From Candidatus Saccharimonadota bacterium (GTDB lineage: Bacteria; Patescibacteriota; Saccharimonadia; Saccharimonadales; Saccharimonadaceae): a stretch of DNA of 64,000 bases. The notes beneath the pieces are model-generated. The model saw nothing but the letters and a program-made list of their open reading frames with translations, did not search any database and was not told the DNA's origin. Positions 23,455 through 37,382 of the stretch are shown here, piece by piece (the first letter of the stretch is position 1; each line of letters opens with the position of its first letter). Location: positions 65,623 to 129,622 of the forward strand of contig JAFWSJ010000014.1 in the NCBI GenBank assembly GCA_017524405.1. Reading direction: 5' to 3'. The translations under genes and the position numbers were made by a program.

Positions 23455-23472
23455 TGCTAAAATTTAGGCATG
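23455..23472 (+). promoter_or_regulatory. extended -10 box 6 nt from the ATG (predicted leaderless ABC-F mRNA)
   Basis: TGCTAAAAT-TTAGGC-ATG. Confidence 0.55.
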
Positions 23473-25113
23473 AAAGGCGAGCATCTCTCTCTAGCTTTTG
23501 GCGGCCAGAAACTCTACGACGATTGTAGTTTTAATTTTGAAGCCACAGATAAGGTAGGGATCGTGGGCGTGAATGGCGCCGGCAAGTCTACGCTCATCAA
23601 GGTGCTGCTCGGCTTCGAGCAACTCGACGAGGGCGAGATTACGCTGCCAAGCATGCGCGTCGCCTACCTGCCGCAGGAGATTCGCATCGATTCCGATCAG
23701 GACAATGTGACGGTTTGGGATTATATCGCCGACGGCCGCCCCGTCGATTCCCTGCAAGGGCAGCTTAGCGTTGAATACGAAAAACTCGCAAAATATCCCG
23801 AGAGTCAGGCCATTCTCGAGCGCATCAACCGTTTGCAAGATTTGATTGATTCCTACGATATCGCGAATTTTGACTATGAACTAATGAAAATCGTCGAGCG
23901 CATGGGCTTGTCCGATTTGATTGATTCTCCGATGAAACAGCTTTCCGGTGGCCAGAAGTCCAAGGTTGCCTTCGCGAAGGTACTATTTGAGAATGCCGGG
24001 CTTCTCATGCTCGACGAGCCGACCAACCACCTCGACGCCTCGACCAAGGAATTCGTCGCGAATTACCTACGTAATTACAAGGGTATGGTCCTTGTTATTT
24101 CGCACGATGTTCCCTTCCTCGATACCGTCACGAATAAGACACTTTTTTTAAACAAAACTACGCATAAAATGAACACCTACCACGGCAACTACACGGCCTT
24201 CCGCCGCCAGTACGCTGCCGAGATGGCCGACCAAGATAAGCGCGTGACCGAGCAAGAGCGCGAGATTCGCCGCCTTCGCGAATTCGTGGAACGCGCCAGG
24301 AATGCCAAGCGCAGCAACACGGCCCTCATCAAGCAGGGGCATGTCCGCGAGAAGGTTCTCGATAAGAAGCTCGCTGAGCTCGAAACCCGCGAGCAGGAAT
24401 ACAAAAAGGTCGAGATTAACGTTTCGCCAGCAAAGCAGTCCGGCAAGACGCCGCTCGAGCTCCAAAATCTTACGTTCTCTTATCCTGGTGCCGATCCAAT
24501 GTATGATAAGCTGTCATTCCAGTTAACTCGCGGTGAGAAGTTTCTGATTGTCGGCGAGAACGGCATCGGCAAGTCTACACTCCTCAAGCTCATCGTCGGC
24601 CAGCTCTATCCGGACGAGGGCTCGATTATCTTTAGCCAGAATACGACTACCGCTTACTATGCGCAGGAGCTCGAGATTCTCGACGAGCATCGCTCCGTGC
24701 TCGAGAATGTCCGCAATTATGACTTTACCGATACCGATATGCGCGGAATCCTCTCGAATTTCCTTTTCCAGGGCGATGATGTCAATAAACCAGTCTCCGT
24801 GTTGTCTCCTGGCGAGAAGGCCCGCGTGGCGCTCTGCAAGATTCTTTCGGAGCGCGCGAATCTCATCATTCTTGATGAGCCGACCAACCATTTCGATCCA
24901 GAGACCCAGAAGATTATTGGCGAAAATTTCCGTGATTACGACGGCACGCTCGTAATGGTTAGCCACAACCCGGCCTTCGTGGAGCAAATCGGCATTACGC
25001 GCATGCTGATTTTGCCTTCGCACGAGCCCGGCAAGCCTCTAGTGCCGGTTATTAAGAACTACTCCCGAGAGCTGCTCGAATACTATTACTACCTCAACTC
25101 CGACCTCGTTTAG
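23470..25113 (+). CDS. ABC-F family ATPase (two ABC domains, no TM domain)
   Basis: 547 aa. Walker A GVNGAGKST and GENGIGKST, signatures LSGGQKSKV and LSPGEKARV, and a charged interdomain linker. Confidence 0.92.
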   Translation: MKGEHLSLAFGGQKLYDDCSFNFEATDKVGIVGVNGAGKSTLIKVLLGFEQLDEGEITLPSMRVAYLPQEIRIDSDQDNVTVWDYIADGRPVDSLQGQLSVEYEKLAKYPESQAILERINRLQDLIDSYDIANFDYELMKIVERMGLSDLIDSPMKQLSGGQKSKVAFAKVLFENAGLLMLDEPTNHLDASTKEFVANYLRNYKGMVLVISHDVPFLDTVTNKTLFLNKTTHKMNTYHGNYTAFRRQYAAEMADQDKRVTEQEREIRRLREFVERARNAKRSNTALIKQGHVREKVLDKKLAELETREQEYKKVEINVSPAKQSGKTPLELQNLTFSYPGADPMYDKLSFQLTRGEKFLIVGENGIGKSTLLKLIVGQLYPDEGSIIFSQNTTTAYYAQELEILDEHRSVLENVRNYDFTDTDMRGILSNFLFQGDDVNKPVSVLSPGEKARVALCKILSERANLIILDEPTNHFDPETQKIIGENFRDYDGTLVMVSHNPAFVEQIGITRMLILPSHEPGKPLVPVIKNYSRELLEYYYYLNSDLV

Positions 25114-25201
25114 TCTGAGCCGTGTTATAATTCGTCTATCTCGGCAACATTTTCTAGCCCCATGAGAAGGAGGTTGGTCGAGGCTAGCGACCAAGCACAT
25201 T

Positions 25202-25732
25202 ATGAGTATACAGAGAAAAATCGCCCGCCGCATCAAGTCTCGGTACCCTGTTTCGATTCCGCGAGAAGAGCTAGATCACAAGGGTATCCTCGTGGTCAAT
25301 AGTGCTTTTGCGCTATCGATTTATGCCACAATCGTCGCCATAATCTTGCTACTAGCAGCAGACACTGGCCAGATAATTGCGACTAAGCCGGTAGCCTTCG
25401 TGCTGCTCTTGAGCGCTCTCCCGTGCGTAATCCCGAAGATTATCGTCGCCCACACGAAACTAGACGAAGACAACCCCTCCGAGTGCACGAGGGATATTCT
25501 TCGACTCAAGATGATCTTCGCTGCAATGTCGATGGTCGCATCGCTCGTATGGTCGATCAATCTACTTGGGCTCATGCTTACGGCCGCCGAATTTCGCAGC
25601 AACATCTACGCAATTCTCTCGGTCGCAGTATTGATAATTGGCGTAATCATTGCGCTGGTAGACATATCGCTAATCGTGATCGAAAACCGGAAATTCAAAA
25701 GAAAGCAGAGGCGCGTAGTAGGTTGGGAATGA
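25202..25732 (+). CDS. hypothetical multi-pass membrane protein
   Basis: 176 aa with about four hydrophobic helices. TGTTATAAT at 25128-25136. Confidence 0.55.
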   Translation: MSIQRKIARRIKSRYPVSIPREELDHKGILVVNSAFALSIYATIVAIILLLAADTGQIIATKPVAFVLLLSALPCVIPKIIVAHTKLDEDNPSECTRDILRLKMIFAAMSMVASLVWSINLLGLMLTAAEFRSNIYAILSVAVLIIGVIIALVDISLIVIENRKFKRKQRRVVGWE

Positions 25733-25789
25733 TTTTCTAGAAATCCTCGGTTTTAATACCGGGGATTTTTGTTGGCATAAGCTATTCCG

Positions 25790-25806
25790 TGTATAATAAG
25801 CTTATG
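25790..25806 (+). promoter_or_regulatory. extended -10 box 6 nt from the ATG (predicted leaderless)
   Basis: TGTATAAT-AAGCTT-ATG. Confidence 0.55.
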
Positions 25807-26991
25807 ATTAAGGTCAAAAAGCTTCGTCTCGGTTTTAGCCTGAGCGTCCTAGCGCTTCTCCTAGCTTCTTCTTTTGTTATTTCCTTGCCGAAACAGGCGC
25901 ATGCCTCATCGATGGTCTGTAAATGTACTAATACCTACTCTGACGGCACCGTAAAGGAAGAAAACGGCGCGAGCGTCACCATATTCGGCGACGAAAACGG
26001 CTGCTATTGCGGGGGCACCGACGGCGCAATTAATCTCATCGTTAGCATTTTTACTGGGACCTTAGTGGTGGCTGGCACGGTCGGAATCGTCATCGTCGGC
26101 CTCATGTTCTTGACCGCCCGCGACAACGAAGAGCAAGTCACGAAGGCAAAGAAAAGACTCGCGCAAGTCGTCGTCGGCATAATTGCCTTTGCTCTCATTG
26201 ACGCTATCGCCAATCTCCTCATTCCGGGTGGCCTAGCCAATCGGAAGCCTCTCGTCGCCAGTTCGGAATCGAGCCTCGAAGAGGTCGAGGACCCCGAGCT
26301 AGAGCTAGCCGAAGACAAAAAGCGCCCTTCTGGGCTTCCGCCGACCATGCATACTTACGATAATGACGGCCAATCCTCGTCGAGCACTGGCTGCCTAGAT
26401 GGGGCCAAAAAGACGAGCTCCGCAAAATTCTACTGGCAATTTAACAAAGATGTCGGAAATATTATCTGGAAGGGTGGCACCTGTCAGGGTTCAAGCAAAA
26501 ACTGGAAGCCGAACTCGAAGATCGGCGCCTCCGGCTGCCCGATGATGGCCTCACTTAACGCAATCAACAAGGTCACGGGTTGCGGCTACACGCCAAAAAT
26601 GTTCGCAGAGCATATGAAGAAGTACACCAATAACTTCAAGGATCGAAAGGGCCTATTCTCGAGCAATAGTTGCTGGTCGAATACCGGCGCCCCTATCGTA
26701 AAACACTACATGAAGGCGTATAAGGTACACCACAAAGAGTTGAGCGGCTCGAAGCAACAGAAGAAAGAAAAGGCAAAAGAAGCCCTCCTGAAACAGCATG
26801 TCGTCATCGTCAGTGGCAAAGGCGACGATATCTTCGGCACTAACGCAGGCCATTTCGTCCTATTCTCGACCTATAAGTCTTCCTCAAATACCGTCACAAT
26901 TATTAATCCGTCCCAGGGCGGCCTCAGAATTGATAAAAATCTAGACACGGCAGTCAAGCACGCTAAGAGGTTCATCGAAGTATGGAACTAA
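25804..26991 (+). CDS. secreted T4SS-pilin-like (TrbC/VirB2-type) domain fused to a papain-like cysteine peptidase domain
   Basis: Starting at ATG 25804 gives a classic signal peptide (MIKVKKLRLGF...AHA/SS). This is followed by a Cys-rich stretch, two TM helices flanking NEEQVTKAKKRL, an acidic linker, and GASGCPMMASL ... AGHFVLF (Cys/His). Confidence 0.6.
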   Translation: MIKVKKLRLGFSLSVLALLLASSFVISLPKQAHASSMVCKCTNTYSDGTVKEENGASVTIFGDENGCYCGGTDGAINLIVSIFTGTLVVAGTVGIVIVGLMFLTARDNEEQVTKAKKRLAQVVVGIIAFALIDAIANLLIPGGLANRKPLVASSESSLEEVEDPELELAEDKKRPSGLPPTMHTYDNDGQSSSSTGCLDGAKKTSSAKFYWQFNKDVGNIIWKGGTCQGSSKNWKPNSKIGASGCPMMASLNAINKVTGCGYTPKMFAEHMKKYTNNFKDRKGLFSSNSCWSNTGAPIVKHYMKAYKVHHKELSGSKQQKKEKAKEALLKQHVVIVSGKGDDIFGTNAGHFVLFSTYKSSSNTVTIINPSQGGLRIDKNLDTAVKHAKRFIEVWN

Positions 26992-27506
26992 AAGATTTGC
27001 TGAATAAACGGGGGCAGAAGTCGCAACCGTTGACGCCGACCAGTAATTCCAAACCAGCGAGCTCGAGCGGCAAGAAGCGTGCCATATTCATCGTCGTTGT
27101 CTGCGCGGTATTCTTGCTCATAGTCGCCGGAGTTACCTTATTTGTCGCGTCAACCCAAAAGGGCCCAAATAAAAACGTCGACGTTTCAGAAGGAGCCCCG
27201 GGTATCAACGACGAAACGGGGGGCGAAGAATATGTTTTTCCAGAAAATCAGAGAATAGATTTCCTCTCGAAGTATGGCGTCTCTGAAGACGACATGGTTT
27301 TCGTCGAGGATAAGATTACTGAAGTTATCGAAGAATATTACGGCGAGGTCGGCTACGACCAGATATTCTACAACAACGGCGAAGGCGACGTAACAGTCGA
27401 AGACGGCCAGATTAAGTTTACCGTCTACACCGATGTGGGCGACCGCCTGACTAGCGTCACGATCAAGATGGACGGCAACAGAGTCAAGACTGTGTACATC
27501 TATTAG
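26982..27506 (+). CDS. hypothetical membrane-anchored protein, translationally overlapping the peptidase fusion
   Basis: 174 aa. One TM helix (AIFIVVVCAVFLLIVAGVTLFVA) followed by an acidic extracytoplasmic domain. Overlaps the upstream gene by 10 nt. Confidence 0.55.
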   Translation: MELKDLLNKRGQKSQPLTPTSNSKPASSSGKKRAIFIVVVCAVFLLIVAGVTLFVASTQKGPNKNVDVSEGAPGINDETGGEEYVFPENQRIDFLSKYGVSEDDMVFVEDKITEVIEEYYGEVGYDQIFYNNGEGDVTVEDGQIKFTVYTDVGDRLTSVTIKMDGNRVKTVYIY

Positions 27507-27517
27507 ATGCTCCTCTA

Positions 27518-27545
27518 TTGACTTTTTAGCTACTTATGCTATAAT
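27518..27545 (+). promoter_or_regulatory. cassette 1 promoter
   Basis: TTGACT-N16-TATAAT with TGC before the -10. Confidence 0.7.
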
Positions 27546-27585
27546 TAGTTTATCCTATATATACTCTTCGAGGAGGTGCTCTTTT

Positions 27586-27891
27586 ATGGAAACATGTGAA
27601 AAAGATATCAATAAACTGCTAAAGAAGCATGATCTTGTGTTTAAGCGCAGAAAAATGTGCCAAACAACAGGCCTAGTTTCATTGGCTATTGCGGGATTAG
27701 CTATGATTACATTCGTAGCTTTTGCCCTTAGCGATGTCGCGGTATGGGGGCTCATAGCCGTAGCAGTCTTGTTCGCTATCGGTGCCATCGTTTCGCTTGC
27801 TGCGTATTATTATTACGACGATGAGTCAATAAGATACGTGGAAAAGATTAACAGCATACAGCTCTATATGATTCGACGGCCCCGTTCCTAA
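27586..27891 (+). CDS. small 2-TM protein, cassette 1
   Basis: 101 aa. Roughly 28-aa polar N-terminus, two hydrophobic helices and a polar tail. GAGGAGGTG upstream. Confidence 0.55.
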   Translation: METCEKDINKLLKKHDLVFKRRKMCQTTGLVSLAIAGLAMITFVAFALSDVAVWGLIAVAVLFAIGAIVSLAAYYYYDDESIRYVEKINSIQLYMIRRPRS

Positions 27892-27921
27892 CCCCGGTTA
27901 ACACCCGGGGTTAACTTTTTT
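27889..27921 (+). terminator. cassette 1 terminator
   Basis: TAACCCCGG-TTAACAC-CCGGGGTTA followed by ACTTTTTT. Confidence 0.7.
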
Positions 27922-27941
27922 GCCAGATAGCGCCTGTGCTC

Positions 27942-27969
27942 TTGACTTTCGCGTATTTCGTGCTATAAT
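27942..27969 (+). promoter_or_regulatory. cassette 2 promoter
   Basis: TTGACT-N16-TATAAT with TGC before the -10. Confidence 0.7.
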
Positions 27970-28006
27970 TTAGACACCTATACCTACTCTTACAGGAGGG
28001 CACCTT

Positions 28007-28306
28007 ATGAAAAAGATTAATGATTTGGATTACGAAGAGCTAACGCTCGAGGCAATAATAGCCAAAACGTGGACCGAACGCTGCAAGACGATGTTCTGGG
28101 CTACGATGGTCTTCGGATGGCTTACTCTCGGCATAGCAGGAGCACTTATAGAATGGGCAAATCTTCCGACTCTCGGAAATATCATCTGGATTTCCGCTCG
28201 CGTAGTCATGTTTTTGGCCATAATTCCCCTTACTCTACAGATCATTTTCTTCATTCGAGGACGTAAGTGTTTTACTCTTCGAGAACAAATTAAGCAACAG
28301 CCATAA
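28007..28306 (+). CDS. small 2-TM protein, cassette 2
   Basis: 99 aa with the same architecture as cassette 1. CAGGAGGG upstream. Confidence 0.55.
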   Translation: MKKINDLDYEELTLEAIIAKTWTERCKTMFWATMVFGWLTLGIAGALIEWANLPTLGNIIWISARVVMFLAIIPLTLQIIFFIRGRKCFTLREQIKQQP

Positions 28307-28318
28307 TTGGCGATTCTG

Positions 28319-28347
28319 ACACCCCGGTCCATACCGGGGTTCTCGTT
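28319..28347 (+). terminator. cassette 2 terminator
   Basis: ACCCCGGT-CCAT-ACCGGGGT followed by TCTCGTTT. Confidence 0.6.
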
Positions 28348-28358
28348 TGGGTTTAGTA

Positions 28359-28387
28359 TTGACTTTTTATCCCGCTTGTGCTATAAT
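28359..28387 (+). promoter_or_regulatory. cassette 3 promoter
   Basis: TTGACT-N17-TATAAT with TGC before the -10. Confidence 0.7.
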
Positions 28388-28427
28388 AGTATTATCCTAT
28401 TTATTCTATCCCCAAGGAGGTTCCTTT

Positions 28428-28739
28428 ATGAAAAATGATATTACGGTCGAAGAGTTGCATGCCGAAATTGCACACGCATCTAAGGTAGGAAGTTTTTGCG
28501 ATAAAGGCAGCTGGGTTGCGCTAGTCATTAGCAGCCTGCTCAATATACTGCAGATTTGCCTCATACCAGATGGATCTTGGCTGAAGTGGTGCTTCATCAT
28601 TGCGGCAGGAAATTTCCTGATTTGCGCAATCGTGATGATCATCATTGAAATGCGCGCCGATAGAAAAGCACGCAGGCTTCTTTACCAATTAGCTAGAAAA
28701 GCGTCGGTTCTCATAAGAATCGACTCTTGCCCCGACTAA
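28428..28739 (+). CDS. small 2-TM protein, cassette 3
   Basis: ATG 28428 follows AAGGAGG. 103 aa with the same architecture as cassettes 1-2. Confidence 0.55.
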   Translation: MKNDITVEELHAEIAHASKVGSFCDKGSWVALVISSLLNILQICLIPDGSWLKWCFIIAAGNFLICAIVMIIIEMRADRKARRLLYQLARKASVLIRIDSCPD

Positions 28740-28758
28740 CCATCGGGGTTCATTTTTT
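28730..28758 (+). terminator. cassette 3 terminator
   Basis: CCCCGA-CTAACCAT-CGGGG followed by TTCATTTTTT, overlapping the stop codon. Confidence 0.6.
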
Positions 28759-28797
28759 ACCAAAAAAATAAGCCCTGCGGGCATATTTTCTTGTTTT

Positions 28798-28872
28798 TGG
28801 CTGGGGATGAGGGATTCGAACCCCCGAATGGTGGGACCAGAACCCACTGCCTTACCACTTGGCGAATCCCCA
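28798..28872 (-). tRNA. tRNA-Gln (anticodon CTG)
   Basis: 75-nt cloverleaf folded by hand: acceptor TGGGGAT/ATCCCCA, 3-bp D stem, anticodon loop TTCTGGT, T arm GGGGG-TTCGAAT-CCCTC, encoded CCA. Confidence 0.9.
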
Positions 28873-28989
28873 ATGGTTAATTCGGATACCATTTGATTCT
28901 ACCACTTTTTCGGCAAAATGCCAATACTTAGCCAAAAATGTTATAATGGGGGCAATCCAAAAGAAGTCCTTTGAAAGGGGGTGGGTCAA

Positions 28990-29973
28990 TTGAGGAATAA
29001 GTACTCAATTTTGAAAATTAGTCAGAGCGAACCTAGAGATTTAATCGACGACATGAGCAAGGCCCATTTTTCCTTATTAAGGAGTTTTGGGTGTGGCATA
29101 CATAATTTCTGGTTGTTTTGGGTGCGGTTTGCGTGCCTCTTTTTTATTAAGATGGCAGAACGCCGCGCGGAGAAACGCACAGAGATGGATCGCGAAAGCG
29201 CACTGAGGCTTGAGCTCGGTAAAATCTTTCAGCATGGAGCGCCGTCGATCGTTGGCACTTCGCCCGATTTTCCCGATCCGGACTATGGCCTCGTCATTGG
29301 TTTTAACCATCCGTCTCTAGGAGAAATTCTCCGTCTCATGTATATTTGCATGCTCGTTTATCCCGAGCGCAAGTATCTGTTTCCGGTCAATATTCTCTGG
29401 TACGAGGCTTTAGTCCCGGTTATCGATAGGCTTGCCGAATTTGGCTTCACGCTTATGCCGGTAATTACGCCAAAGGCCAAGAAAAAGCTCATGAAGCATG
29501 CCAAGAAAATCGAGGCGCGCGTTCAGGTCAATCGCTTAACTCGCGGCTTCGTCGAGGCATACTTTGCGCGCAGCACAGAGTTTGTCAAATCGGGCCAGAT
29601 AGTGCTCGTAGCGCCAAGCGCAACCCGCAAGCAATACGTCTTCGACGACAAAGCAACCGCAGAAGGCAAGAAGCCGATCGAGCCACAGACGATGACTCTT
29701 CTCGCGCTCAGCATTATGAGAGCGAAGATTGAGCATTTCGCCTTTATACCTGTTGCGATTATCCCGCCCGAAGGCGCATCGCGTGGGTTGAATCTTCTTT
29801 GCGAGTACCGGATTATGCCTTGCAATCCGATGAGCGAGGAGACGATCATCCCTAGGTGCAAACAGTTCAAAGATGGCTGCAATGCGCGCCGCTTCGAGCG
29901 CTGCTTCCTAGAAGCGATCGCCAAGGAGCTGGAGTCCAATAACCGCAAAGATCTCATTACTCGCCCTGGCTAA
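28990..29973 (+). CDS. putative acyltransferase (PlsC/LPLAT-like, weak)
   Basis: TTG 28990 lies 5 nt after GAAAGGGGGTGG. Alternatives are GTG 28981 and ATG 29053/29152. Hydrophobic N-terminal helix and an NHPSLGE (HX4E) block resembling the HX4D acyltransferase motif. Confidence 0.45.
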   Translation: MRNKYSILKISQSEPRDLIDDMSKAHFSLLRSFGCGIHNFWLFWVRFACLFFIKMAERRAEKRTEMDRESALRLELGKIFQHGAPSIVGTSPDFPDPDYGLVIGFNHPSLGEILRLMYICMLVYPERKYLFPVNILWYEALVPVIDRLAEFGFTLMPVITPKAKKKLMKHAKKIEARVQVNRLTRGFVEAYFARSTEFVKSGQIVLVAPSATRKQYVFDDKATAEGKKPIEPQTMTLLALSIMRAKIEHFAFIPVAIIPPEGASRGLNLLCEYRIMPCNPMSEETIIPRCKQFKDGCNARRFERCFLEAIAKELESNNRKDLITRPG

Positions 29974-30054: not shown

Positions 30055-31782
30055 GTGGATAGCTATCAGCCATTAGACAGTGTCGAGGACGTCGAGGAGT
30101 TTTACTCGGCGATTGAACGCGACAAATTGACCCACAAGCTCTCGCCAGAGCGCCCTTATTGTTATTGGACGATCGAAACTTACGACAAGAGTAATGGTAT
30201 TCGTGGTGGCGGTGGTCTTGGCGTGCTCGCGGCCGATATGCGCCGCGTTGCCGAACAGCTTTCCGTGCCATTCGTGCTCGTGACGCCATTTTATCCTTGG
30301 GAATCGCATCAGAAGATGCAGGACATGAAGCAGACCGATTTCCATACCGAGCAGCACTATGAGGATTATGGCTTCAATTTCGTAGACAATATCCATATCA
30401 AGACCGAGACGACTGCGGTTGAGCTCAGCGTAATCGAGAAGAAGCTCGGTTCGACCCGCTTCCTTTGCGTAACTGAGCCGAATTTTGGCGAGCTCTACTC
30501 CGGCGAATCCGGTTCCGATCATCGCCTCTATCAAGAGGTGGCGCTCGGCTTTGGCGGCTATCAGGCGCTGAAGCTTGTTGGACTTAGGCCGGCCGTCATC
30601 CAGCTTAATGAGGTTGCGACCTTCTTCGCCGCTGTCGCCCGCCTAGACGAGCTCGTAAGCTCTGGCATGGATTTCTACGAAGCCGTAGTATACACGCGCA
30701 AGCACACGCTCTATACAAACCACACGCTTGTCCAGGCTGCTGAAGCACGCTTCAATTACCGCCAGTTCGAACAGTACGTTTTCCCGAATATCAAGAGCGT
30801 CGCCGTGAAGCGATGGCTCTCCGATAAGTTTACGAATGGCAGTATCCAACTCTCTACGCCAACCGTTGAGATTGCCGAGCTTCGTTCTGGCGTCAGCAAG
30901 CTACATGCCCGCGTCGCGAATTACCACGATATCAATGGCGCAAAGATTAAGTTCAAGAGCGTCACGAATGGTATTCATATGCGTACTTGGGTACTCCCAG
31001 AAATTATGGACTACTACTACGAGCACGAAATTCTTGATAAATTCGATTTGCCGCCGGTAGAAACACTCGCCGAGAAGGTCGAGGTTATGAACGCCGAAGA
31101 TATTCGCCACTTGAAGCTCGCCGGTCGCCGTAAGCTTAACGAGATTCTCTCGCATCGCACCGATCAGTACGGCAATTCGATTCAGATTCCAGAAGACGCA
31201 ATGCTTTTTGATTTCAAGCGCCGCTTCGTCGATTACAAGCGCCCTTGGCTACCTTTTGATAACCCACATAAGCTCGCGGAGATTCTCGAGAAGTACAATG
31301 CTCACTACATTCTCGCCGGCCGCGTGCATCTCGGCGACAAGCGCATGTTCGAGAAGCTAATGGACGTATTGCATACGATCGACAACAACCCGATTCTCAA
31401 GGAACGCGTGCATTATCTACCAGATTACGATGAGGAGCTCGGCCTTGGTCTTAGCCTTGGCGCGAACAGCTCAATTAATACGCCAATCGTTGGCCTTGAA
31501 GCCTGCGGCACGAGCTGGATGAAAGACATCGCTAACCTCGGCATTTTGATTTCTACCCACGATGGTGGCGTAGCAGACATGCCTTCGGATAATTACCTCA
31601 CGATTTCTGGCCGAAACGAAGGCGAGGAATGCGCAGAGCTATATCGCCAGATGGAAGTTGCCGCTCAGGCCTGGCAAAATGATTTTGATCTCGAATACTG
31701 GATCCACAAGGAACTCGTTGCCTATCTCGACATTATTTCCGGCTCGAGAATGATGAAAGATTATTTGAATTATCTATTCTAG
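30055..31782 (+). CDS. glgP: alpha-glucan phosphorylase (GT35, short GlgP type)
   Basis: 575 aa. GGLGVLAAD near the N-terminus and EACGTSWMK (PLP-lysine region). GTG start after AAGGAAAAGG. Confidence 0.9.
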   Translation: MDSYQPLDSVEDVEEFYSAIERDKLTHKLSPERPYCYWTIETYDKSNGIRGGGGLGVLAADMRRVAEQLSVPFVLVTPFYPWESHQKMQDMKQTDFHTEQHYEDYGFNFVDNIHIKTETTAVELSVIEKKLGSTRFLCVTEPNFGELYSGESGSDHRLYQEVALGFGGYQALKLVGLRPAVIQLNEVATFFAAVARLDELVSSGMDFYEAVVYTRKHTLYTNHTLVQAAEARFNYRQFEQYVFPNIKSVAVKRWLSDKFTNGSIQLSTPTVEIAELRSGVSKLHARVANYHDINGAKIKFKSVTNGIHMRTWVLPEIMDYYYEHEILDKFDLPPVETLAEKVEVMNAEDIRHLKLAGRRKLNEILSHRTDQYGNSIQIPEDAMLFDFKRRFVDYKRPWLPFDNPHKLAEILEKYNAHYILAGRVHLGDKRMFEKLMDVLHTIDNNPILKERVHYLPDYDEELGLGLSLGANSSINTPIVGLEACGTSWMKDIANLGILISTHDGGVADMPSDNYLTISGRNEGEECAELYRQMEVAAQAWQNDFDLEYWIHKELVAYLDIISGSRMMKDYLNYLF

Positions 31783-33104
31783 GCCGCCTGCGGCGTTTCA
31801 TCGCTTTCGGCGATGTTTTTCTTAATATAGGCTTTTTCGTCCACGACAACTATTGGGATACCATAATATTTCGCATGCCTCAAAACCAGCTCATTAATAC
31901 CTCTTTCTGCCGGTACGAATATGAACTGCGGCGAAAGAGGCTTATCGCTGTCCTCCTCGTAGCGATCAATTGCAATTTCATTATAATTCCCATGAAACGA
32001 CACACCCTCGTCTTTCTGGTTGGCAAGAGCAGCCTGCTCTAATTCAGGAATGTTGAATATGGTCGGTGTTGGCGAAGAGCTGTCTATATTTCCGGTGTAC
32101 GACTGCCTGATTGCAGCGTCCTTTGCGTCGGCAGCGATTATTTTTCTTCTCCCTATATCGCTAAAACCATAAAATAGGTGTCGCTCCCGATTGTAGTTTT
32201 CGCCACGTTGCGCATGCCCATCCGGCATTTTATCGGTCAGAAGGGAGGTCGAAATGTTTACGGAATATTCCTTGCCAAAATCTCCATATCGTGAAACCTG
32301 GTTATGCTTTTTTGCGCGCGTCACAAAGGCGCCTGGGTCATCTAGCTGTCTTAATGAGCGGGCAATACTCTCTCCATGCGCGGGCTTCATGCGTTCCCCC
32401 TCTTCCGAGCGATACCCAATATCGTGCACTAGGAAGCAGAAATTATGGCCAGTTAGATGGTAAACCGGGATCATCTCGCCCTCATACTCTACGCTTTCTT
32501 TCGAAATCCCGTCTTCACCCATTATGACCCAGTCCTCGAAGTCGTCGACGCCCGTAGCCCTATTTTCAAAATCTAGCTTAAACATTTCCCTATTGGTTTT
32601 ATATTTAGCTATCGCCGCATCTGCATCGACCATTTCTTTTATCATCTGGTCATTCAGCTTTTTCTTCTCAACCCTAGCCGCTTTGATAGCTTTTTCGTGC
32701 GCTGCTCTGATGTCCGCATTTTCACTATGCCTAGCTGAATCGCCCTCGCCAAAAAATTTATTTCCCCGCTCTTCATATCGGCGTCGTTTTTCGCCTTCGA
32801 CATACGCTTCTAGATCGCGTTCTTCATCTATTTTTTCGCGCATGATCCCCATCGCATATAATGCCTTACGTGCAATTTTTTTGACAGTGGGGACCTCTTC
32901 TTTTGCGCGTTCATATTCCTCTGGAGTCCACGCGTTCTCCGTAGCACGCTCTTCTTCTTTAAACACACGAATAGCCTCTTCCTGCTCATCATCGTAGCTT
33001 TTAACGATAGCTTTAACAGGGCGAAAAATAGCAGATTTTAGTTTTTCCCACCCACTTTTTGGCGCTTGCGCCTCTTCTTCGTTTCTGTTTTCGCCATTTT
33101 CCAT
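31779..33104 (-). CDS. hypothetical protein with a highly charged N-terminal half
   Basis: 441 aa. Glu/Lys/Arg-rich N-terminal half of roughly 200 aa, then a globular C-terminal half. No motif I recognise. Confidence 0.55.
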   Translation of the reverse strand: MENGENRNEEEAQAPKSGWEKLKSAIFRPVKAIVKSYDDEQEEAIRVFKEEERATENAWTPEEYERAKEEVPTVKKIARKALYAMGIMREKIDEERDLEAYVEGEKRRRYEERGNKFFGEGDSARHSENADIRAAHEKAIKAARVEKKKLNDQMIKEMVDADAAIAKYKTNREMFKLDFENRATGVDDFEDWVIMGEDGISKESVEYEGEMIPVYHLTGHNFCFLVHDIGYRSEEGERMKPAHGESIARSLRQLDDPGAFVTRAKKHNQVSRYGDFGKEYSVNISTSLLTDKMPDGHAQRGENYNRERHLFYGFSDIGRRKIIAADAKDAAIRQSYTGNIDSSSPTPTIFNIPELEQAALANQKDEGVSFHGNYNEIAIDRYEEDSDKPLSPQFIFVPAERGINELVLRHAKYYGIPIVVVDEKAYIKKNIAESDETPQAA

Positions 33105-33116
33105 GATTAAATTATA
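33102..33116 (-). promoter_or_regulatory. -10 box 6 nt from the ATG (predicted leaderless)
   Basis: Minus strand reads TATAAT-TTAATC-ATG. Confidence 0.55.
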
Positions 33117-33184
33117 TACTTTTCAGAGATAGTATGCTATACTCTTGACAGAGTCCGGTAAGGACTATTTTTAATGGAGTAAAT

Positions 33185-33556: not shown

Positions 33557-34108
33557 ATGGCAGTTAACCGCTATGATGGTACTCGCGCATGGTATGCAGT
33601 TAGTACCTACTCCGGCTACGAAGACAAGGTGGCCGATTCCATCCGTCAGCGTCTCGATGGCGTAGATTTCGCCGACAAGATCTTTGACGTTATGGTTCCA
33701 AAAGAAAAACAAATTGATATCAAGAACGGCAAGCGCCGTATCGTCGAAAAGAAGATTTTCCAGGGCTACGTGCTCGTCGAAATGAAGCTTTCCGATGCTA
33801 CTTGGTACATTATTCGTAACACGCCAGGCGTAACCGGCTTCGTCGGTACTGGCACTCAGCCAACTCCAGTTTCAAAGAAAGAAATCGAAAAGATCAAGAA
33901 GCGCATGGGCGTTGACGATCCAAAGTTCACCGTCAACTACTCTGCTGGCGAGGTCGTTTCCGTCACCGATGGTCCATTCAAGGGCTTCGAAGGTACTATC
34001 TCCGAGATCGACTCGAATAAGGGTAAGCTCAAGGTTCTCGTTTCCATGTTTGGTCGCGAAACCGCCGTCGAGCTTGACGCACTACAAGTTAAGAAGATTG
34101 ACGACTAG
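33557..34108 (+). CDS. nusG: transcription termination/antitermination factor NusG
   Basis: 183 aa. NGN domain (WYAVSTYSGYEDKV) and KOW (GEVVSVTDGPFKGFEGTISEID). Confidence 0.96.
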   Translation: MAVNRYDGTRAWYAVSTYSGYEDKVADSIRQRLDGVDFADKIFDVMVPKEKQIDIKNGKRRIVEKKIFQGYVLVEMKLSDATWYIIRNTPGVTGFVGTGTQPTPVSKKEIEKIKKRMGVDDPKFTVNYSAGEVVSVTDGPFKGFEGTISEIDSNKGKLKVLVSMFGRETAVELDALQVKKIDD

Positions 34109-34109
34109 T

Positions 34110-35765
34110 ATGAAAGCGCTTAAGAATCTTAAGCGCCCAAGCCGCCTTAGCGTATTCTCCGGAATCGCGGCGGTTTTTTTGGCTCTAATGATGCAGTCGG
34201 GCGGCAGCGCCATGGCTGGCATTATGGGTTATTCCGCATTGTCTTTCGTTATCGGATTCTTGCTCTATTTTGCCCTGTTCTTCTTCCTGATTCGCAAGCT
34301 GTTCCTCTTCCTTGACCGCAAGCCAAAAGCACGCGCGAAAAAACAATCTTTCGTAAACAAATTCTCCGTTAAATACTTCTTCATCTTCTTCGGCATCATC
34401 TTGCTATGTTGGCTGCCAATCTTCCTGGCATACTACCCGGGCGCCTTTGGCTATGATGTCGAGTACCAGATGACCGACCTCGATACTTTCGATGGGCACC
34501 ATCCGCTCATCCACAATATCTTCCTACGCGGGACGGTCGCGATTGGCTACAAGCTATTCGGCCCAAACAACCTCGCTATCGCATTCAGCACGGTGATCCA
34601 GATGATTATCATCGGGGGCGCATTCGCTTATATCTGCGAGGCTTTCCGTCACTTCGGCAAGAAGTATCTTCATTATGGTGCAGCGCTGTTCTTCGGCCTC
34701 ATGCCATTCTGCAGCTATATGGCGATTAGCCACACCAAGGATGCGATGTTTATCGCTTTCTTTGCGATGAGCCTGATGATGATTTTCGAGGCTTTAGTTA
34801 TCGAGAAAATCAGCGTAAAACGCATTATTGGCACGTCGTTTATCTTCATGTTGACAGCACTATTTCGCAACAACGCGCCATACATTGTCGTCGCTTGGCT
34901 CATCATCGCATCAATCATGCTTTGGCGCTACCAGGCGAAGCGCGTGCTGCTTTACGCTTGTGCAGGCGGCCTCGTGCTCGCTGGCGTATTCCATATTGTC
35001 GGAACTCGCGTATTCTCAACTACGGGCGAAACTGAGCTCAGCGCGCCATATTCCGTGCCGCTTCACCTCATGGCCGCCACGATCGCCTTCCACCCGGAGC
35101 TTCTCGACGAAGAGAATCTCGAGGACGGTAAAGTCTTTGGCTACTTCGATAAGGAGAACGTCGAAGCCGGCGCATATTATTGCCCAGTTCTCGCTGACTG
35201 CGCGAAGCATACCTTGGGTCTGCAAATTACGAACGAAAACAAGATGCAGATGCTCCTCACGACCGCAAAGGTCGGCTTGAGCCATCCGGCAGACTATCTC
35301 AAGTCTTACATTTATCTCATGAAGAGTTCTTGGTATCCGTTCTCTTATGACTACTACAAGATTTACGGCACGGTCAATCCGGCCGGCGAAGAAGAGGCGG
35401 GCTTCCGCGAAGGCATTACGCGCCCAACTATCATGGCGCCATACGTCACGCATCAGCCGCTCTTGCCGCATCTTCGCGCCTTCCTCGATAAGGAATGGTT
35501 TAACTTGGGCTACTCTGGCAATCTCATCACGAACACCATCATGGTCCCAGCCACTTATGTACATGGCCTCGTGATTATCATTTGCTACGCTTGGTATTCT
35601 CGCCGCAAGAAGCTACTTCTCATGACGATGCTACCACTCATGGCTTACGGAACGATCTTAATCGGCCCATGCGTGCTCATTCGCTACATGGCGCCAGTCA
35701 TGGTCGCAGTACCGATGCTCTACGCATATACTTTCGTCTATAAGGATAGCCTACTGGAGAAGTAG
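34110..35765 (+). CDS. large polytopic membrane protein, GT-C-like putative glycosyltransferase (paralog 1)
   Basis: ATG 34110 lies 2 nt after the nusG stop. 551 aa. Shares MK..RP.R..VFSGI, PG.FGYDV, HHPLIH and SSWYPFSYDY blocks with the next gene. Confidence 0.6.
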   Translation: MKALKNLKRPSRLSVFSGIAAVFLALMMQSGGSAMAGIMGYSALSFVIGFLLYFALFFFLIRKLFLFLDRKPKARAKKQSFVNKFSVKYFFIFFGIILLCWLPIFLAYYPGAFGYDVEYQMTDLDTFDGHHPLIHNIFLRGTVAIGYKLFGPNNLAIAFSTVIQMIIIGGAFAYICEAFRHFGKKYLHYGAALFFGLMPFCSYMAISHTKDAMFIAFFAMSLMMIFEALVIEKISVKRIIGTSFIFMLTALFRNNAPYIVVAWLIIASIMLWRYQAKRVLLYACAGGLVLAGVFHIVGTRVFSTTGETELSAPYSVPLHLMAATIAFHPELLDEENLEDGKVFGYFDKENVEAGAYYCPVLADCAKHTLGLQITNENKMQMLLTTAKVGLSHPADYLKSYIYLMKSSWYPFSYDYYKIYGTVNPAGEEEAGFREGITRPTIMAPYVTHQPLLPHLRAFLDKEWFNLGYSGNLITNTIMVPATYVHGLVIIICYAWYSRRKKLLLMTMLPLMAYGTILIGPCVLIRYMAPVMVAVPMLYAYTFVYKDSLLEK

Positions 35766-37382
35766 ATGAAGCTGCGGAGGCCAGATAGAATTACCGTTTT
35801 CTCAGGTATTTCGGCGTTCTTGCTCTCCGCGACCTTTGCTATTGGCCCACTATTCACTGGAAACAGCTCAAAACTCGTTTGCGTTTTGAGCTTTTTGATG
35901 TATCTTCCAATTTTCTGGTTCGCAATCTATAAGCTCTACGGCTTTTTCGACAAACTCACCAAGCGCCGCGTTCGTAAGGTAGACCTGGCCAAAACACGCT
36001 TTTCGTTTAAAAACTTTTGGCTATTCTTCGCAATCATCATAATCCCGTCTATCCTTCTACTTTTAGCCTTCTGGCCGGGGCATTTCGGATATGACGTGGG
36101 CGGAGAATTGCTTGGAGAAGGCGTCTATTCCGACCATCATCCACTGATTCACGTGCTATGGCTTCACGGCATCGTAAGAATCGGCAATCTGCTAAATCTC
36201 AGCCCGAACTTGACGGTTGCTCTGATGTCGATTAGTCAGATTGTTCTTTGCGCCGCAATATATGCTTACATCTCCGAGTTTTTCTCGCGAATTACCTCTA
36301 GAAAATGCGGGATTTTTGTCGCATTACTTTTCGCATTACTTCCTGCGAGCAGCTTTGCGATGATTGCCATTACGAAGGATACCGTGCATGTGGCTATGTT
36401 CTGCTTGGTGGTCACCCTCGCATATCGCCTATTTTGCCTTAAATCGCCCGCTAAGCGAGACATTGTTGCATTTGTCGCGATTGCTGGGCTGTTTGGGGTT
36501 ACCCGTAATAATTCAATATATATCCTAGCTCTGTTCGGCATCTTTAGCTTCTTCCTACTCAAGAGGCATGCTCTGCGCAAGACGATGACGATTTGCGCAT
36601 TTTCGTCACTAGTAGTTGCCGTTATTCTGAATGCCGGTCTTGCGGCCTATGCGCATCCTTATAAGCTGCAAGCATCAGCAGCGTTTAGCCTGCCGCTCCA
36701 GCTCGTTGCCGGCACGGTCGACGCCCACCCAGAGCTTATCCCTGAAATCAATAGCGGAGAGAAGATCCTTGGGTTTTTCGAATATAGCTCCGATTTTAAC
36801 ACCTACGACTTCTTCAGCAAAGGCTCCGACGTTACAAAAAATAACAGCTACGCTAAGCAAATCGAGGGGCGCGAGTTCGAATTCCTGCTACTAACGGCCA
36901 GAACTGGCCTCAGATATCCGGCCGACTACCTGAGAGTATTCGGCGACCAGACGCTAAGTTCTTGGTATCCATTCTCCTACGACTATGCCTATTATTACTA
37001 TAAATTCGGTGGGCAACTCAACTTCAACGAGTCAACAACGCAGCAAACAGCGATGTTACCAAACGTCCAGGACAGCTCGAAAATCCCGTTCCTACGCGAT
37101 TTCCTTTCTTACGAATTCCGCGAACTGCACTATCGGGATAATCCGTTTTTGCTCTTCTTATGCGCTCCAGCAAGCTATGTTCTGGCTCTGCTCGTATTGG
37201 CTCTTTATCTCGCCTATCGCAAGGATAGGATTCTGTTCTTGGTCGCAAGCCTCGCCCTGTCATGCTACTTCGTTATCTTAATTGCTGCGCCGTGCATCCT
37301 AGTTCGATACATGCTACCGATCATGCTAGCCGTACCGCTTCTCTATCTATTGAAGCTTCGCTCTAGGGCTCGCATCTATTAG
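35766..37382 (+). CDS. large polytopic membrane protein, GT-C-like putative glycosyltransferase (paralog 2)
   Basis: 538 aa. Starts immediately after the stop of paralog 1 and is colinear with it. Confidence 0.6.
   Translation: MKLRRPDRITVFSGISAFLLSATFAIGPLFTGNSSKLVCVLSFLMYLPIFWFAIYKLYGFFDKLTKRRVRKVDLAKTRFSFKNFWLFFAIIIIPSILLLLAFWPGHFGYDVGGELLGEGVYSDHHPLIHVLWLHGIVRIGNLLNLSPNLTVALMSISQIVLCAAIYAYISEFFSRITSRKCGIFVALLFALLPASSFAMIAITKDTVHVAMFCLVVTLAYRLFCLKSPAKRDIVAFVAIAGLFGVTRNNSIYILALFGIFSFFLLKRHALRKTMTICAFSSLVVAVILNAGLAAYAHPYKLQASAAFSLPLQLVAGTVDAHPELIPEINSGEKILGFFEYSSDFNTYDFFSKGSDVTKNNSYAKQIEGREFEFLLLTARTGLRYPADYLRVFGDQTLSSWYPFSYDYAYYYYKFGGQLNFNESTTQQTAMLPNVQDSSKIPFLRDFLSYEFRELHYRDNPFLLFLCAPASYVLALLVLALYLAYRKDRILFLVASLALSCYFVILIAAPCILVRYMLPIMLAVPLLYLLKLRSRARIY

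Follow-up and report, generated by a model that had tools for sequence, protein, structure and literature searches.

The DNA analysed here, a window of 64,000 nucleotides from a Candidatus Saccharimonadota bacterium, contains three small genes in a row, each provided with a promoter of its own and each encoding a protein of about 100 residues with two transmembrane (TM) helices. Saccharibacteria are obligate epibionts with tiny genomes, and at this locus strain-level variation within an uncultured gut lineage can be seen in a clean and compact form. The locus raises two questions: how was the array assembled, and what might its products do? A preliminary description proposed a duplication followed by rapid diversification of the coding sequences, with regulatory DNA conserved, as seen for immunity, holin-like or receptor-blocking proteins.

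Anatomy of the cassettes

Direct reading of the sequence, together with scans, shows that the tandem cassettes are real: three promoter–gene–terminator units occupy positions 27518-28758, with a spacing of 424 and 417 bp, all on the + strand. The promoters are located at 27518-27545 (TTGACT-16-TATAAT), 27942-27969 (TTGACT-16-TATAAT) and 28359-28387 (TTGACT-17-TATAAT). Each matches 11 of the 12 consensus positions and carries the TGC of an extended -10 element immediately 5' of the -10 box, and together they are the best three promoter-like sites detected by scanning 12 kb. The motif TTGACT-N13/14-TGCTATAAT occurs six times in the 64 kb, versus 0.00 expected in shuffled sequences, and three of these six occurrences fall within the 1.24 kb of the cassettes. 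A TTGACT promoter had been correctly noticed in all three units, but its initial notation (N16/17-TGCTATAAT) is a slight miscount, as the 16/17-nt spacer already includes the TGC.

The leaders are 37-40 nt long, each with a GGAGG, and their similarity holds as first described: CCTAT...ACTCTT is common to leaders 1 and 2, and TATCCTAT to leaders 1 and 3. An Rfam scan of positions 25000-29200 returned a tRNA only, and thus no known leader RNA or riboswitch. The genes, which we call cas1, cas2 and cas3, are located at 27586..27891 (101 aa, with GAGGAGG at 27570-27576), 28007..28306 (99 aa, MKKINDLDYEEL...) and 28428..28739 (103 aa, MKNDITVEEL...), respectively; the ORF starting at 28347 in the ORF list (130 aa, TTG start) is an upstream extension of the third.

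A hairpin lies at the end of each unit. Intrinsic terminator 1 (27889..27921; hairpin 27889-27913) has a 9-bp stem and a T6 tract and overlaps the cas1 stop codon; terminator-like hairpin 2 (28321..28350; hairpin 28321-28340) has an 8-bp stem and a weak T-tract; intrinsic terminator 3 (28729..28758; hairpin 28729-28749) has a 7-bp stem and a T6 tract. The stop codons of the first and third ORFs fall within these hairpins, in the loop in the latter case. In the order of the units, the hairpins fold with -15.5, -16.0 and -11.3 kcal/mol (z-scores -3.0, -1.6 and -3.7). Three hairpins are therefore present as initially noted, although the CCCCGG type does not extend to the third stem (CCCCGA) and the T-tract of the second is poor. 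GC content is 42-44% over the cassette part of the locus versus ~50% in the flanks. With promoters and terminators identified as consensus matches, each cassette is predicted to be an autonomous monocistronic unit, comprising a near-consensus sigma-70 promoter, a GGAGG, an ORF of ~100 codons and a terminator at or after the stop codon. Such a set of near-consensus promoter, leader and terminator may also serve as an expression part for Saccharibacteria.

The similarity of the promoters does not imply a regulatory element dedicated to the cassettes. The same motif is found in the window upstream of purA, of an RpoA-CTD-like gene and of a third gene, and in related genomes it also precedes unrelated cassettes. 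What had been taken for conserved regulatory DNA is thus mostly the ordinary strong-promoter consensus of this genome.

A family of hairpin proteins in a variable island

The three proteins have the common layout that was first recognized, with 99-103 aa, a polar N-terminal tail of 27-29 aa, two hydrophobic helices and a C-terminal tail with 4-8 Lys/Arg. Calling them barely alignable is fair, as pairwise identities are 15-18% in a three-way alignment and 20-28% in a family-wide alignment. Nevertheless, several observations support a single fast-evolving family of paralogues. The proteins have in common an N-terminal MKxxxD(M/L)xxEEL-like motif, a Cys preceding TM1 and a loop Trp; hhalign relates cas1 to cas3 (E 5e-5) and cas3 to cas2 (E 0.0036), the cas1-cas2 comparison having no significance on its own; and leave-one-out HMMs rank each type first or second among ~9,070 ORFs (E 9e-7 to 0.023), these being weak profile scores for short, compositionally biased proteins. 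The family comprises at least eight sequence types. Further types are encoded in the related loci L009 (4609-4929), L011 (4781-5056), L012 (4170-4445 and 6424-6720), L014 (6472-6825) and L180 (5426-5746), and another, P0022, lies directly before tRNA-Gln in L181, that is, at the same position. All types share a charged N-terminal helix of 25-32 aa, TM1, a loop of 2-17 aa, TM2 and a basic tail. The cas1, cas2 and cas3 products are thus deeply diverged from one another within a lineage-restricted family of membrane proteins built as helical hairpins. This small membrane protein family was previously unannotated, and is defined here together with a companion four-TM family (see below).

Lys and Arg residues number 3-8 in the tails versus 0-1 in the loop, which by the positive-inside rule predicts an N-in/C-in topology with a tiny outer loop. 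Receptor blocking, one of the roles first suggested, is unlikely, because merely 2-17 residues are predicted to face outward. The AlphaFold model consists of two long helices (4-50 and 57-97; pLDDT 69) forming a generic helical hairpin. A Foldseek search against the PDB gave nothing below E=1, the best matches being designed helical bundles, and a profile search of PDB sequences gave no match at E<=1. A known domain was not identified either: the Pfam, PHROGs, PADLOC and NCBIfam matches to the three ORFs (Na_Ala_symp, Sigma_M_inh, Holin-X, SLATT_1, CoxD, PspM) are all sub-threshold and composition-like.

In word searches, cas1 relatives form 17 clusters (83-99% identity) and cas3 relatives three (83-98%), and for cas2 a single 90% cluster was found in 5.8e9 proteins; a cas2 orthologue with four amino-acid differences is located in L014 (7580-7879). 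A profile search of 1.84e9 representatives yielded five matches at E<=1e-3, only two of which (P0022 and P0023) were new. The family thus appears to be confined to close relatives of this animal-gut Saccharibacterium, within the limited sensitivity that searches of databases of 1e9 sequences have for TM proteins of 100 aa. No family member was detected in loci of other species anchored on the ABC-F gene described below. Relatives of the cassette proteins were likewise absent from IMG/VR, the INPHARED phages and the PLSDB plasmids, and a phage or plasmid origin is therefore unsupported.

A conserved single-copy gene of other species (MSVYDLD...), which encodes a two-TM protein near ABC-F, was considered as an ancestor and rejected (hhalign P 0.01-0.03, probability <4%). 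Its layout and its distribution, complementary to that of the cassettes, are suggestive only.

The cassettes form the tRNA-proximal end of a 3.7-kb strain-variable island (25114..28797), in which every gene is on the + strand. To the left, a conserved ABC-F ATPase gene (23470..25113, +; Pfam ABC_tran/ABC_tran_Xtn) served as an anchor; to the right, a tRNA-Gln(CTG) gene (28798..28872, - strand), whose 3' end faces the island, constitutes a conserved boundary, and the right flank in relatives is tRNA-Gln/a 330-aa gene. Upstream of the cassettes, the island carries three other genes. The first (25202..25732, +) encodes a 176-aa four-TM protein ending in ...RRVVGWE, without match in Pfam, NCBIfam or PADLOC. 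It represents a second island-specific family, with one or two copies in each island examined, including two (L016 and L096) devoid of two-TM cassettes. We considered that this protein might be a duplicated two-TM unit, which was not established (hhalign P 0.002-0.005, probability <=13%). The second gene (25789..26991, +) encodes a 400-aa protein with a predicted signal-like N-terminal hydrophobic segment, a VirB2-like pilin TM hairpin (T4SS_pilin, residues 80-144, E 8.7e-7) and a C39-like domain (Peptidase_C39_2, residues 247-374, E 1.9e-6); its NCBIfam match to Mbov_0395 pilin-like (E 1.8e-6) is under the cut-off of that model. The third gene (26982..27506, +) begins before the peptidase gene has ended and also accompanies that gene in relatives; its 174-aa product has a single TM helix and an acidic domain at the C-terminus.

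This island belongs to a narrow clade of animal-gut/rumen Saccharibacteria, and our literature search returned no specific description of such a Saccharibacteria island. Almost every related genome has its own gene content here, with 0-3 cassettes per island in at least nine arrangements, and in L040 the site is empty, tRNA-Gln lying 58 bp after ABC-F. Cassette number and identity thus vary between strains. Invariant single-copy genes in relatives would have spoken against the preliminary description; as the relatives are variable, it is not refuted on this ground. Its suggested link to the adjacent C39-like peptidase fares less well. Indeed, cas1 is present without the peptidase gene in four islands (L009, L012, L176 and L180), and a toxin-immunity pairing of the two is therefore rejected as obligatory.

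Are the cassette ORFs genuine genes? Values of dN/dS are 0.27-0.57 for cas1, 0.22 for cas2 and 0.66 for cas3 (the latter two versus L014), as compared to 0.01-0.03 for ABC-F between the compared genomes (dS 0.77-1.38). The diversification is thus rapid in that dN/dS is 10-30 times that of flanking core genes, but it stays below 1, significantly so for cas1, for cas2 and for the pooled data (Fisher p 2e-4). In cas1, the TM hairpin is the best conserved region, with 28 of its 42 columns invariant as against 8 of 29 in the N-terminal tail. We regard it as very improbable that the ORFs are non-functional, that is, chance ORFs or decaying remnants behind strong promoters. The absence of known domains, the single cas2 cluster in the whole protein collection and the moderate AlphaFold confidence could be read that way, but dN/dS lies significantly under 1 as just noted, more than 20 clusters retain the length and reading frame of the ORFs, a strong Shine-Dalgarno sequence precedes every ORF at the correct distance, and the TM hairpin is conserved within each type. 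From dN/dS, the cassette ORFs appear to be real, fast-evolving genes.

Apparent exchange of cassettes between lineages

Comparisons with related genomes bear directly on how the array arose. The cas1 module (27518-27949) is 91% identical to its counterparts in L009 and L012, and the block carrying cas2 and cas3 (27939-28815) is 94.5% identical to L014, whereas the ABC-F and phosphorylase genes are 77-89% identical in the same genome comparisons. Similarly, dS is 0.06-0.22 for the cassettes versus 0.65-1.38 for flanking core genes. Selection on synonymous sites could in principle lower cassette dS, but conservation is just as high in the parts of the modules that do not code for protein.

Neighbouring genes differ from one genome to another. 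The cas1 gene occurs alone, with types of 106, 91 or 98 aa, or with metzincin-like cassettes, and in L014 cas2 and cas3 sit behind a 117-aa type and a four-TM gene. Homology with L095 ends exactly at 27969 and homology with L014 begins at 27939, both at promoter 2. More generally, 48 of 128 homology-block ends fall in promoter-plus-leader intervals covering 4.7% of island positions, and 27 of 99 unique ends (versus ~2 expected) in promoter cores, where their density per nucleotide is ~3.5 times that of adjacent intergenic DNA, with the proviso that block ends are non-independent observations. Part of this enrichment is to be expected, because a junction has to be intergenic to be viable and because motifs common to all cassettes prolong BLAST blocks. 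Promoters and terminator-like hairpins are the only repeated intergenic elements between cassettes.

These alignments show that homology blocks end preferentially inside the common promoter core, and the modules therefore look horizontally exchanged rather than duplicated in place. As judged from the same comparisons, the cassettes behave as units of exchange, modules of ~430 bp running from one -35 box to the next, with core genes 5-10 times more diverged synonymously. Self-expressing modules of less than one kilobase thus appear to cross lineage boundaries at this locus.

The model first put forward, a recent tandem triplication in place followed by fast coding divergence, with selection holding the regulatory DNA, accounts for the regular unit length (424 and 417 bp), for the promoter, leader and terminator design common to all three units, for proteins that are homologous yet very diverged, and for the raised dN/dS. 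We nonetheless consider it improbable. Every type recurs in other lineages as an orthologue that is nearly identical (91-94%) but flanked by different genes, the divergence between types therefore being older than the present array; our data contradict the expectation that the window copies are each other's closest relatives; the common promoter is a genome-wide consensus; and dN/dS never exceeds 1.

How, then, might modules move? No recombinase or transposase domain was detected in the scanned proteins of the window island or of the islands of relatives. An integrative element was considered and rejected, as no integrase was found and the left border does not carry the tRNA 3' end as a direct repeat. 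Recombination that is homologous, or facilitated by homology, would move the modules, probably once DNA has been taken up by natural transformation; the homology would come from ABC-F, tRNA-Gln and the 330-aa gene as conserved flanks and from the promoters common to unrelated cassettes. Natural competence and recombination with ~1-kb flanks are documented in cultured oral Saccharibacteria (PMC10633639), and this locus would be well suited to testing whether natural transformation shapes accessory gene content in the phylum.

The site may thus resemble a hotspot of the minimal mobile element type, devoid of integrase. Such elements were reportedly described in Neisseria by Saunders & Snyder in 2002 and Snyder et al. 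in 2007 (both cited in PMC2649163). In them, whole-gene cassettes that differ between strains lie between the same two conserved genes, and exchange is attributed to transformation and homologous recombination. The likeness extends to different cassettes between fixed flanks, to the lack of detected integrase or att repeats, and to cassettes less diverged than their flanks would predict. Unlike in Neisseria, several cassettes are stacked here. Since internal junctions coincide with the common consensus promoter, single ~430-bp modules seem to be reshuffled within the site, rather than the whole insert alone.

Another comparison is provided by rAID-1 of gut Bacteroidales, an array of orphan immunity genes with a XerD-type recombinase, integron-like repeats and immunity domains (bioRxiv 10.1101/471110). 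Both systems consist of strain-variable, horizontally acquired, small and diverse genes of gut bacteria with repetitive intergenic sequence and a proposed protective role, but the present locus lacks a recombinase, its repeated sequence is a promoter, and neither an immunity domain nor a cognate toxin was identified in it. In contrast to an integron, every cassette has its own promoter and terminator and is not read from a common promoter.

Possible functions of the hairpin proteins

VirB2/TraA pilins have their termini outside and a basic loop in the cytoplasm; a leader that is cleaved off precedes their two hydrophobic helices, and their genes lie close to virB4 or a T4SS cluster. Arrays of VirB2-like pilin genes, which are especially abundant in Saccharimonadia, comprise 2-11 tandem, divergent two-TM genes with a mean identity of ~25% (PMC12102498), and the pilin array of S. 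epibionticum is essential (PMC10633639). The cassettes could accordingly be an array of type IV secretion pilins providing variant subunits for host contact. The resemblance is considerable: same phylum, three tandem ~100-aa two-TM proteins at 15-28% identity, variability between genomes, and a T4SS_pilin-domain gene 600 bp upstream. However, none of the three ORFs matches PF18895 (T4SS_pilin) or PF04956 (TrbC) at E<=0.1, both of which match the neighbouring 400-aa protein, and hhalign of family alignment A3 against the pilin domain of this neighbour gives E 0.23. A signal peptide is absent; there are only two hydrophobic segments, and the N-terminal 25-32 residues form a charged stretch that includes 4-7 Asp/Glu. 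The predicted N-in/C-in orientation, deduced from the Lys/Arg counts given above, is opposite to that of pilins, and each cassette gene has its own promoter and terminator, unlike the published arrays. Finally, no VirB4 domain was found in the scanned ORFs of at least 538 aa in the 64-kb window, which encode EF-G, two DUF6020 proteins, a glycosyltransferase/Wzy protein, LytR, the phosphorylase and ABC-F (a 576-aa ORF at 9562-11292 has no Pfam match). We thus hold a pilin array to be quite improbable.

Pore-forming or lytic proteins in several variants, such as class II holin-like proteins, SLATT-like suicide effectors or membrane toxins, are a second candidate. Class II holins (e.g., phage 21 S) have two TMs, an N-in/C-in topology and a charged C-terminal tail, a layout which the cassette proteins are predicted to share, as they share the size. 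SLATT_1 (NF033634) scores below threshold in seven of seven cas1-type members (best E 5e-5; 21 bits for the window cas1 versus a 41-bit cut-off), and Pfam Phage_holin_3_6 (PF07332) hits cas1 at E 0.012 (16.1 bits versus a 28.4-bit cut-off). None of these matches reaches its curated cut-off, however, and neither cas2 nor cas3 gives any. Moreover, the neighbouring genes include no endolysin, prophage, or SMODS/SLOG/TIR or reverse-transcriptase partner, PADLOC returned nothing, and the phage collections hold no relatives; lysis cassette, sensor partner and phage context are thus all lacking. Three near-consensus, apparently constitutive promoters are also hard to square with lethal products, and suit harmless or protective ones better. 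Lytic or toxic variants therefore seem highly doubtful to us.

The cassette proteins could also be small accessory or regulatory components of an epibiont membrane machine (type IV pili, a T4SS, transporters or the co-resident four-TM family), and matter for host specificity instead of defence. A four-TM member is present in every island with two-TM cassettes, conservation within a type is highest in the TM hairpin, as fits helix-helix binding, and epibionts typically have surface and contact genes that vary between strains (PMC10633639, PMC12102498). On the other hand, the nine arrangements reveal no specific partner that follows a particular cassette type, L016 and L096 contain four-TM members in the absence of any two-TM cassette, and the two families display no sequence relation (hhalign P 0.002-0.005, probability 13%). 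We consider a role in such a machine unlikely, though less so than pilins or pore-formers.

The explanation that we prefer overall, and advance tentatively, is that of exchangeable, self-expressing cassettes of hairpin proteins in an accessory island, with a putative protective role. As to this role itself, it is conceivable, if somewhat doubtful, that the hairpins are constitutively and strongly expressed, type-specific protective factors within the cytoplasmic membrane, a reading that draws on layout, expression design and population pattern only. They might for example confer immunity to membrane-active toxins or exclude an incoming apparatus; specificity would then reside in the TM helices, and each strain would have its own set of cassettes. 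Searches of Pfam, PHROGs, PADLOC and the phage and plasmid collections found no toxin partner, phage or defence signature linked to the cassettes. A more specific proposal, which we regard as a long shot, is that transformation shuffles ~430-bp TM-hairpin immunity or exclusion modules without a recombinase, with the promoter as junction, so that they constitute a membrane 'barcode' for each strain; if so, the setting would be one of conflict between epibionts or between epibiont and host.

Immunity proteins to pore-forming colicins (Cei/Cai types) offer a parallel for the protective reading. They are small inner-membrane proteins expressed from a constitutive promoter of their own, with specificity in their TM helices; they have 3-4 TM helices and are encoded beside their toxin. 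Unlike them, the cassette proteins have two TMs, no sequence similarity to these immunity proteins and no toxin here. If the cassette proteins prove to serve in immunity or exclusion, this would imply a hitherto unknown membrane-targeting antagonism, epibiont-epibiont or epibiont-host. The two size classes of colicin immunity proteins (~110 aa and ~175 aa) are paralleled by the two-TM and four-TM families of the island.

Three tandem cassettes with an ordinary strong promoter

Positions 27518-28758 hold, as the preliminary description proposed, three head-to-tail units of promoter, leader, small ORF and hairpin, with -35 to -35 spacings of 424 and 417 bp. At the head of each unit, TTGACT and TATAAT are separated by a 16- or 17-nt spacer whose last three bases are TGC; the three promoters each match the consensus at 11 of 12 positions and are the top three promoter-like sites in a 12-kb scan. 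Leaders of 37-40 nt containing GGAGG precede ATG-started ORFs of 101, 99 and 103 codons (27586-27891, 28007-28306 and 28428-28739, plus strand; labelled cas1, cas2 and cas3), each followed by a G+C-rich hairpin (-15.5, -16.0 and -11.3 kcal/mol, in that order; the T-tract of the second is weak). Another short hairpin (GCCCTGCGGGC between A- and T-runs) lies at 28759-28797, past the cas3 terminator and ahead of the tRNA-Gln 3' end, and could terminate transcription arriving from either side.

The idea of regulatory DNA conserved specifically among cassettes did not hold, as the shared promoter is the ordinary strong promoter of this genome. Six exact copies of the motif TTGACT-N13/14-TGCTATAAT are present in the 64-kb window (versus none in shuffles): three fall inside the 1.24-kb cassette region, and the others lie upstream of the genes for adenylosuccinate synthetase (21894) and a small RpoA-CTD-like protein (43173) and of a further gene on the minus strand (44846). 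In relatives' genomes, the same design precedes purA and many unrelated island genes. Outside the promoter and Shine-Dalgarno sequence, the leaders share short strings only (e.g. TATCCTAT, close to the expected start site), and Rfam found no known RNA element in them.

A variable island and exchange of modules

The cassettes, with a GC content of 42-44% versus about 50% in the flanks, belong to a strain-variable island (25114-28797). From left to right, the window carries purA, an ABC-F gene (23470-25113), a 176-aa four-TM (4TM) protein, a 400-aa pilin-hairpin/C39-like fusion, a 174-aa single-TM protein, the three cassettes, tRNA-Gln (28798-28872, minus strand), a conserved 330-aa gene, a glycogen-phosphorylase-like gene and NusG, downstream of which are two adjoining large DUF6020 membrane proteins (33912-35765 and 35766-37382, plus strand; Pfam E 1e-11 and 4e-16). 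A 441-aa ORF without domain match (31779-33104, minus strand) shows a clear-cut presence/absence pattern: homology with L009, L014 and L016 skips from 31782 to 33130, where their own coordinates are contiguous. Exact matches to the cas1 protein are found on 17 contigs from metagenomes, one of them 438 kb long, and an ABC-F-anchored search retrieved MAGs labelled Candidatus Saccharibacteria or Nanosyncoccaceae (rumen, sheep, goat, buffalo, horse and mouse gut samples) plus further metagenome contigs.

Comparison of these loci shows that content between ABC-F and tRNA-Gln or the 330-aa gene differs in nearly every related lineage (bare numbers below denote genes by protein length in aa). The window order, 4TM-C39-174-cas1-cas2-cas3, is also that of L001 and L175, while L178 and L095 carry 4TM, C39, 177, cas1, a metzincin-like 221-aa gene and others. 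L176 has 4TM, cas1, 4TM and two metzincin-like genes; L180 has 4TM, 155, cas1, a 106-aa two-TM (2TM) type, 4TM and others; L009 has the 106-aa type, 4TM, cas1 and a metzincin-like gene; and L011 has cas1, a 91-aa type, 4TM, C39 and 168. The order is 71, 91-aa type, 4TM, 155, cas1, 98-aa type, 4TM, 391 in L012, and C39, 179, 70, 117-aa type, 4TM, cas2, cas3 in L014. L181 carries three other genes and then a 96-aa type (P0022) immediately before tRNA-Gln, L016 lacks 2TM cassettes, and L040 is an empty site with a 58-bp ABC-F to tRNA-Gln gap. The 2TM cassette count per island thus runs from 0 to 3, and the variation between strains anticipated in the preliminary description is present in both number and sequence. 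Neither an integrase among the scanned island proteins nor a repeat of the tRNA end was found.

The cassette modules look exchanged between lineages rather than duplicated in place. Positions 27518-27949 (cas1 -35 to the next -35) are 91% identical to L009 and L012, and 27939-28815 (cas2, cas3 and the tRNA start) are 94.5% identical to L014, versus 77-89% for the ABC-F and phosphorylase region in the same genome pairs; an origin by local duplication and rapid diversification, as initially suggested, is thus not borne out. Similarly, Nei-Gojobori dS is 0.06-0.22 for cassettes versus 0.65-1.38 for core genes. L095, whose ABC-F protein is 99% identical to that of the window, shows homology over 7 kb, which ends exactly at 27969, the final base of the cas2 -10 element, and is followed by a metzincin-like cassette. 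In a comparison of nine or ten islands, promoter-plus-leader intervals (4.7% of positions) contain 48 of the 128 homology-block ends, and the 33-nt promoter cores contain 27 of the 99 unique ends (about two expected; about 3.5 times the per-nt density of flanking intergenic DNA). These counts are to be read knowing that survival requires intergenic junctions, that BLAST blocks run on through shared motifs and that the ends are not independent of one another. Cultured Saccharibacteria are documented to be naturally competent and to recombine DNA through homologous arms (PMC10633639), and the exchange pattern matches the Neisseria 'minimal mobile element' concept (references in PMC2649163). We regard the architecture and population genetics of the cassettes as well supported; what is new is the protein family, and the locus itself is a neat variation on a known kind rather than a new category.

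The 4TM family, a second one specific to the islands (168-179 aa; window 25202-25732, plus strand; L009 5379-5906; L012 4603-5133 and 6833-7351; L014 6948-7454; L016 3271-3810), has one or two copies in every island examined, including those free of 2TM cassettes. Most members show an (E/N)ELDH(K/R)G-like motif before TM1, with R(I/V)(I/V)GWE at the C-terminus; about 85 bp upstream are conserved, and no database match was found. Metzincin-like cassettes (221-242 aa; L009 6420-7091; L095 12522-13202; L176 6369-7034 and 7158-7877; L016 4694-5422) combine HE(I/L)GH and Cys-rich motifs with the same consensus promoter, and have no Pfam match. As they sometimes form two diverged tandem copies, they represent another diversifying family in this hotspot. 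In two islands (L012 3744-3959, L014 6052-6264) there are genes for small proteins (about 70 aa) that are rich in Pro and Gly and repeat (I/M)PAGTF(H)D motifs.

A lineage-restricted family of membrane hairpins

The substitution patterns of the cassette ORFs are those of genes: dN/dS amounts to 0.27-0.57 for cas1, 0.22 for cas2 and 0.66 for cas3 (0.01-0.04 for core genes), and the synonymous excess is significant for cas1, cas2 and the pooled set (p 2e-4), not for cas3 alone. A three-way alignment gives 15-18% identity among their proteins, and profile comparisons indicate that these are distant paralogues within one lineage-restricted family. Hhalign relates cas1 to cas3 (E 5e-5, 78 columns) and cas3 to cas2 (E 0.0036, N-terminal 37 residues), cas1 versus cas2 being non-significant, and leave-one-type-out HMMs rank the omitted type first or second of about 9,070 ORFs (E 9e-7 to 0.023). 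The family alignment features an N-terminal M-K-x-x-x-D-(M/L)-x-x-E-E-L, a Cys right before TM1, a loop Trp and a Pro near the C-terminus.

Word-based searches of 5.8e9 proteins retrieved relatives only at 83-99% identity (17, 1 and 3 clusters for cas1, cas2 and cas3), and a complete profile search with HMMER through 1.84e9 representatives added only P0022 and one 71-aa protein. No member was detected in 160 ABC-F-anchored loci of more distant species. As searches with 100-aa membrane proteins have limited sensitivity, the true extent of the family may be somewhat greater. Near ABC-F/tRNA-Gln, other Nanosyncoccaceae-like species encode a two-TM protein of 94-102 aa, conserved and in single copy (MSVYDLDIKGLRKTF...NIYFYSEIRKF...KKK; L027 9620-9928; L040 7201-7482, minus strand; L022 8096-8383; 28 other loci). 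Its layout is that of the cassette family, the two never occur in one locus, and homology between them is not significant (hhalign P 0.01-0.03).

In all nine sequence types examined, the tails hold 3-8 Lys/Arg and the 2-17-aa loop, often Pro-, Trp- or Tyr-rich, holds 0-1, so that both termini are predicted to be cytoplasmic. Among the cas1 columns, 28 of 42 are invariant in the TM hairpin, compared with 16 of 30 (C-tail) and 8 of 29 (N-tail). AlphaFold2, run on a shallow family alignment, gave two long helices (4-50 and 57-97; mean pLDDT 69), for which Foldseek returned generic or designed helical hairpins only (E>1).

Possible functions

The closest described feature in the phylum is the VirB2-like pilin array (PMC12102498), which the cassettes resemble in array form and level of divergence. 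However, they give no pilin profile match, have no signal peptide, differ in predicted topology and lack a virB4 neighbourhood (no VirB4 domain was found in the large ORFs scanned in the window), making it unlikely that they encode pilins. We regard pore formers of the holin/SLATT kind as equally improbable: the layout fits and cas1 alone gives sub-threshold scores, but partner genes and phage context were not found, and three predicted constitutive near-consensus promoters fit poorly. Accessory subunits of a membrane machine are somewhat less doubtful than either. Our preference goes, tentatively, to type-specific protective membrane hairpins. The rAID-1 orphan immunity arrays (10.1101/471110) would be a functional analogue, although, unlike the cassettes, they have a recombinase and recognisable immunity domains.

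A link with the adjacent C39-like peptidase, also envisaged initially, is not obligate, since four islands carry cas1 without the C39 gene. The product of this fusion gene (25789-26991, plus strand) combines an N-terminal segment predicted to be signal-like with a VirB2/T4SS_pilin-like TM hairpin (residues 80-144) and a C-terminal Peptidase_C39_2 domain (residues 247-374); the end of the gene overlaps the start of that for the acidic 174-aa protein (26982-27506, plus strand). The pair recurs in L011 and L014 at 67-77% nucleotide identity, with the same gene order in L178, and may represent a membrane-anchored peptidase with its partner or immunity protein. Positions 26453-26470 of the fusion gene and 28173-28190 of cas2 are identical at 17 of 18 nt (TCGGAAATAT(T/C)ATCTGGA), both encoding GNIIW; with a chance expectation roughly estimated at 0.01 in 4 kb, this identity could reflect micro-conversion or coincidence.
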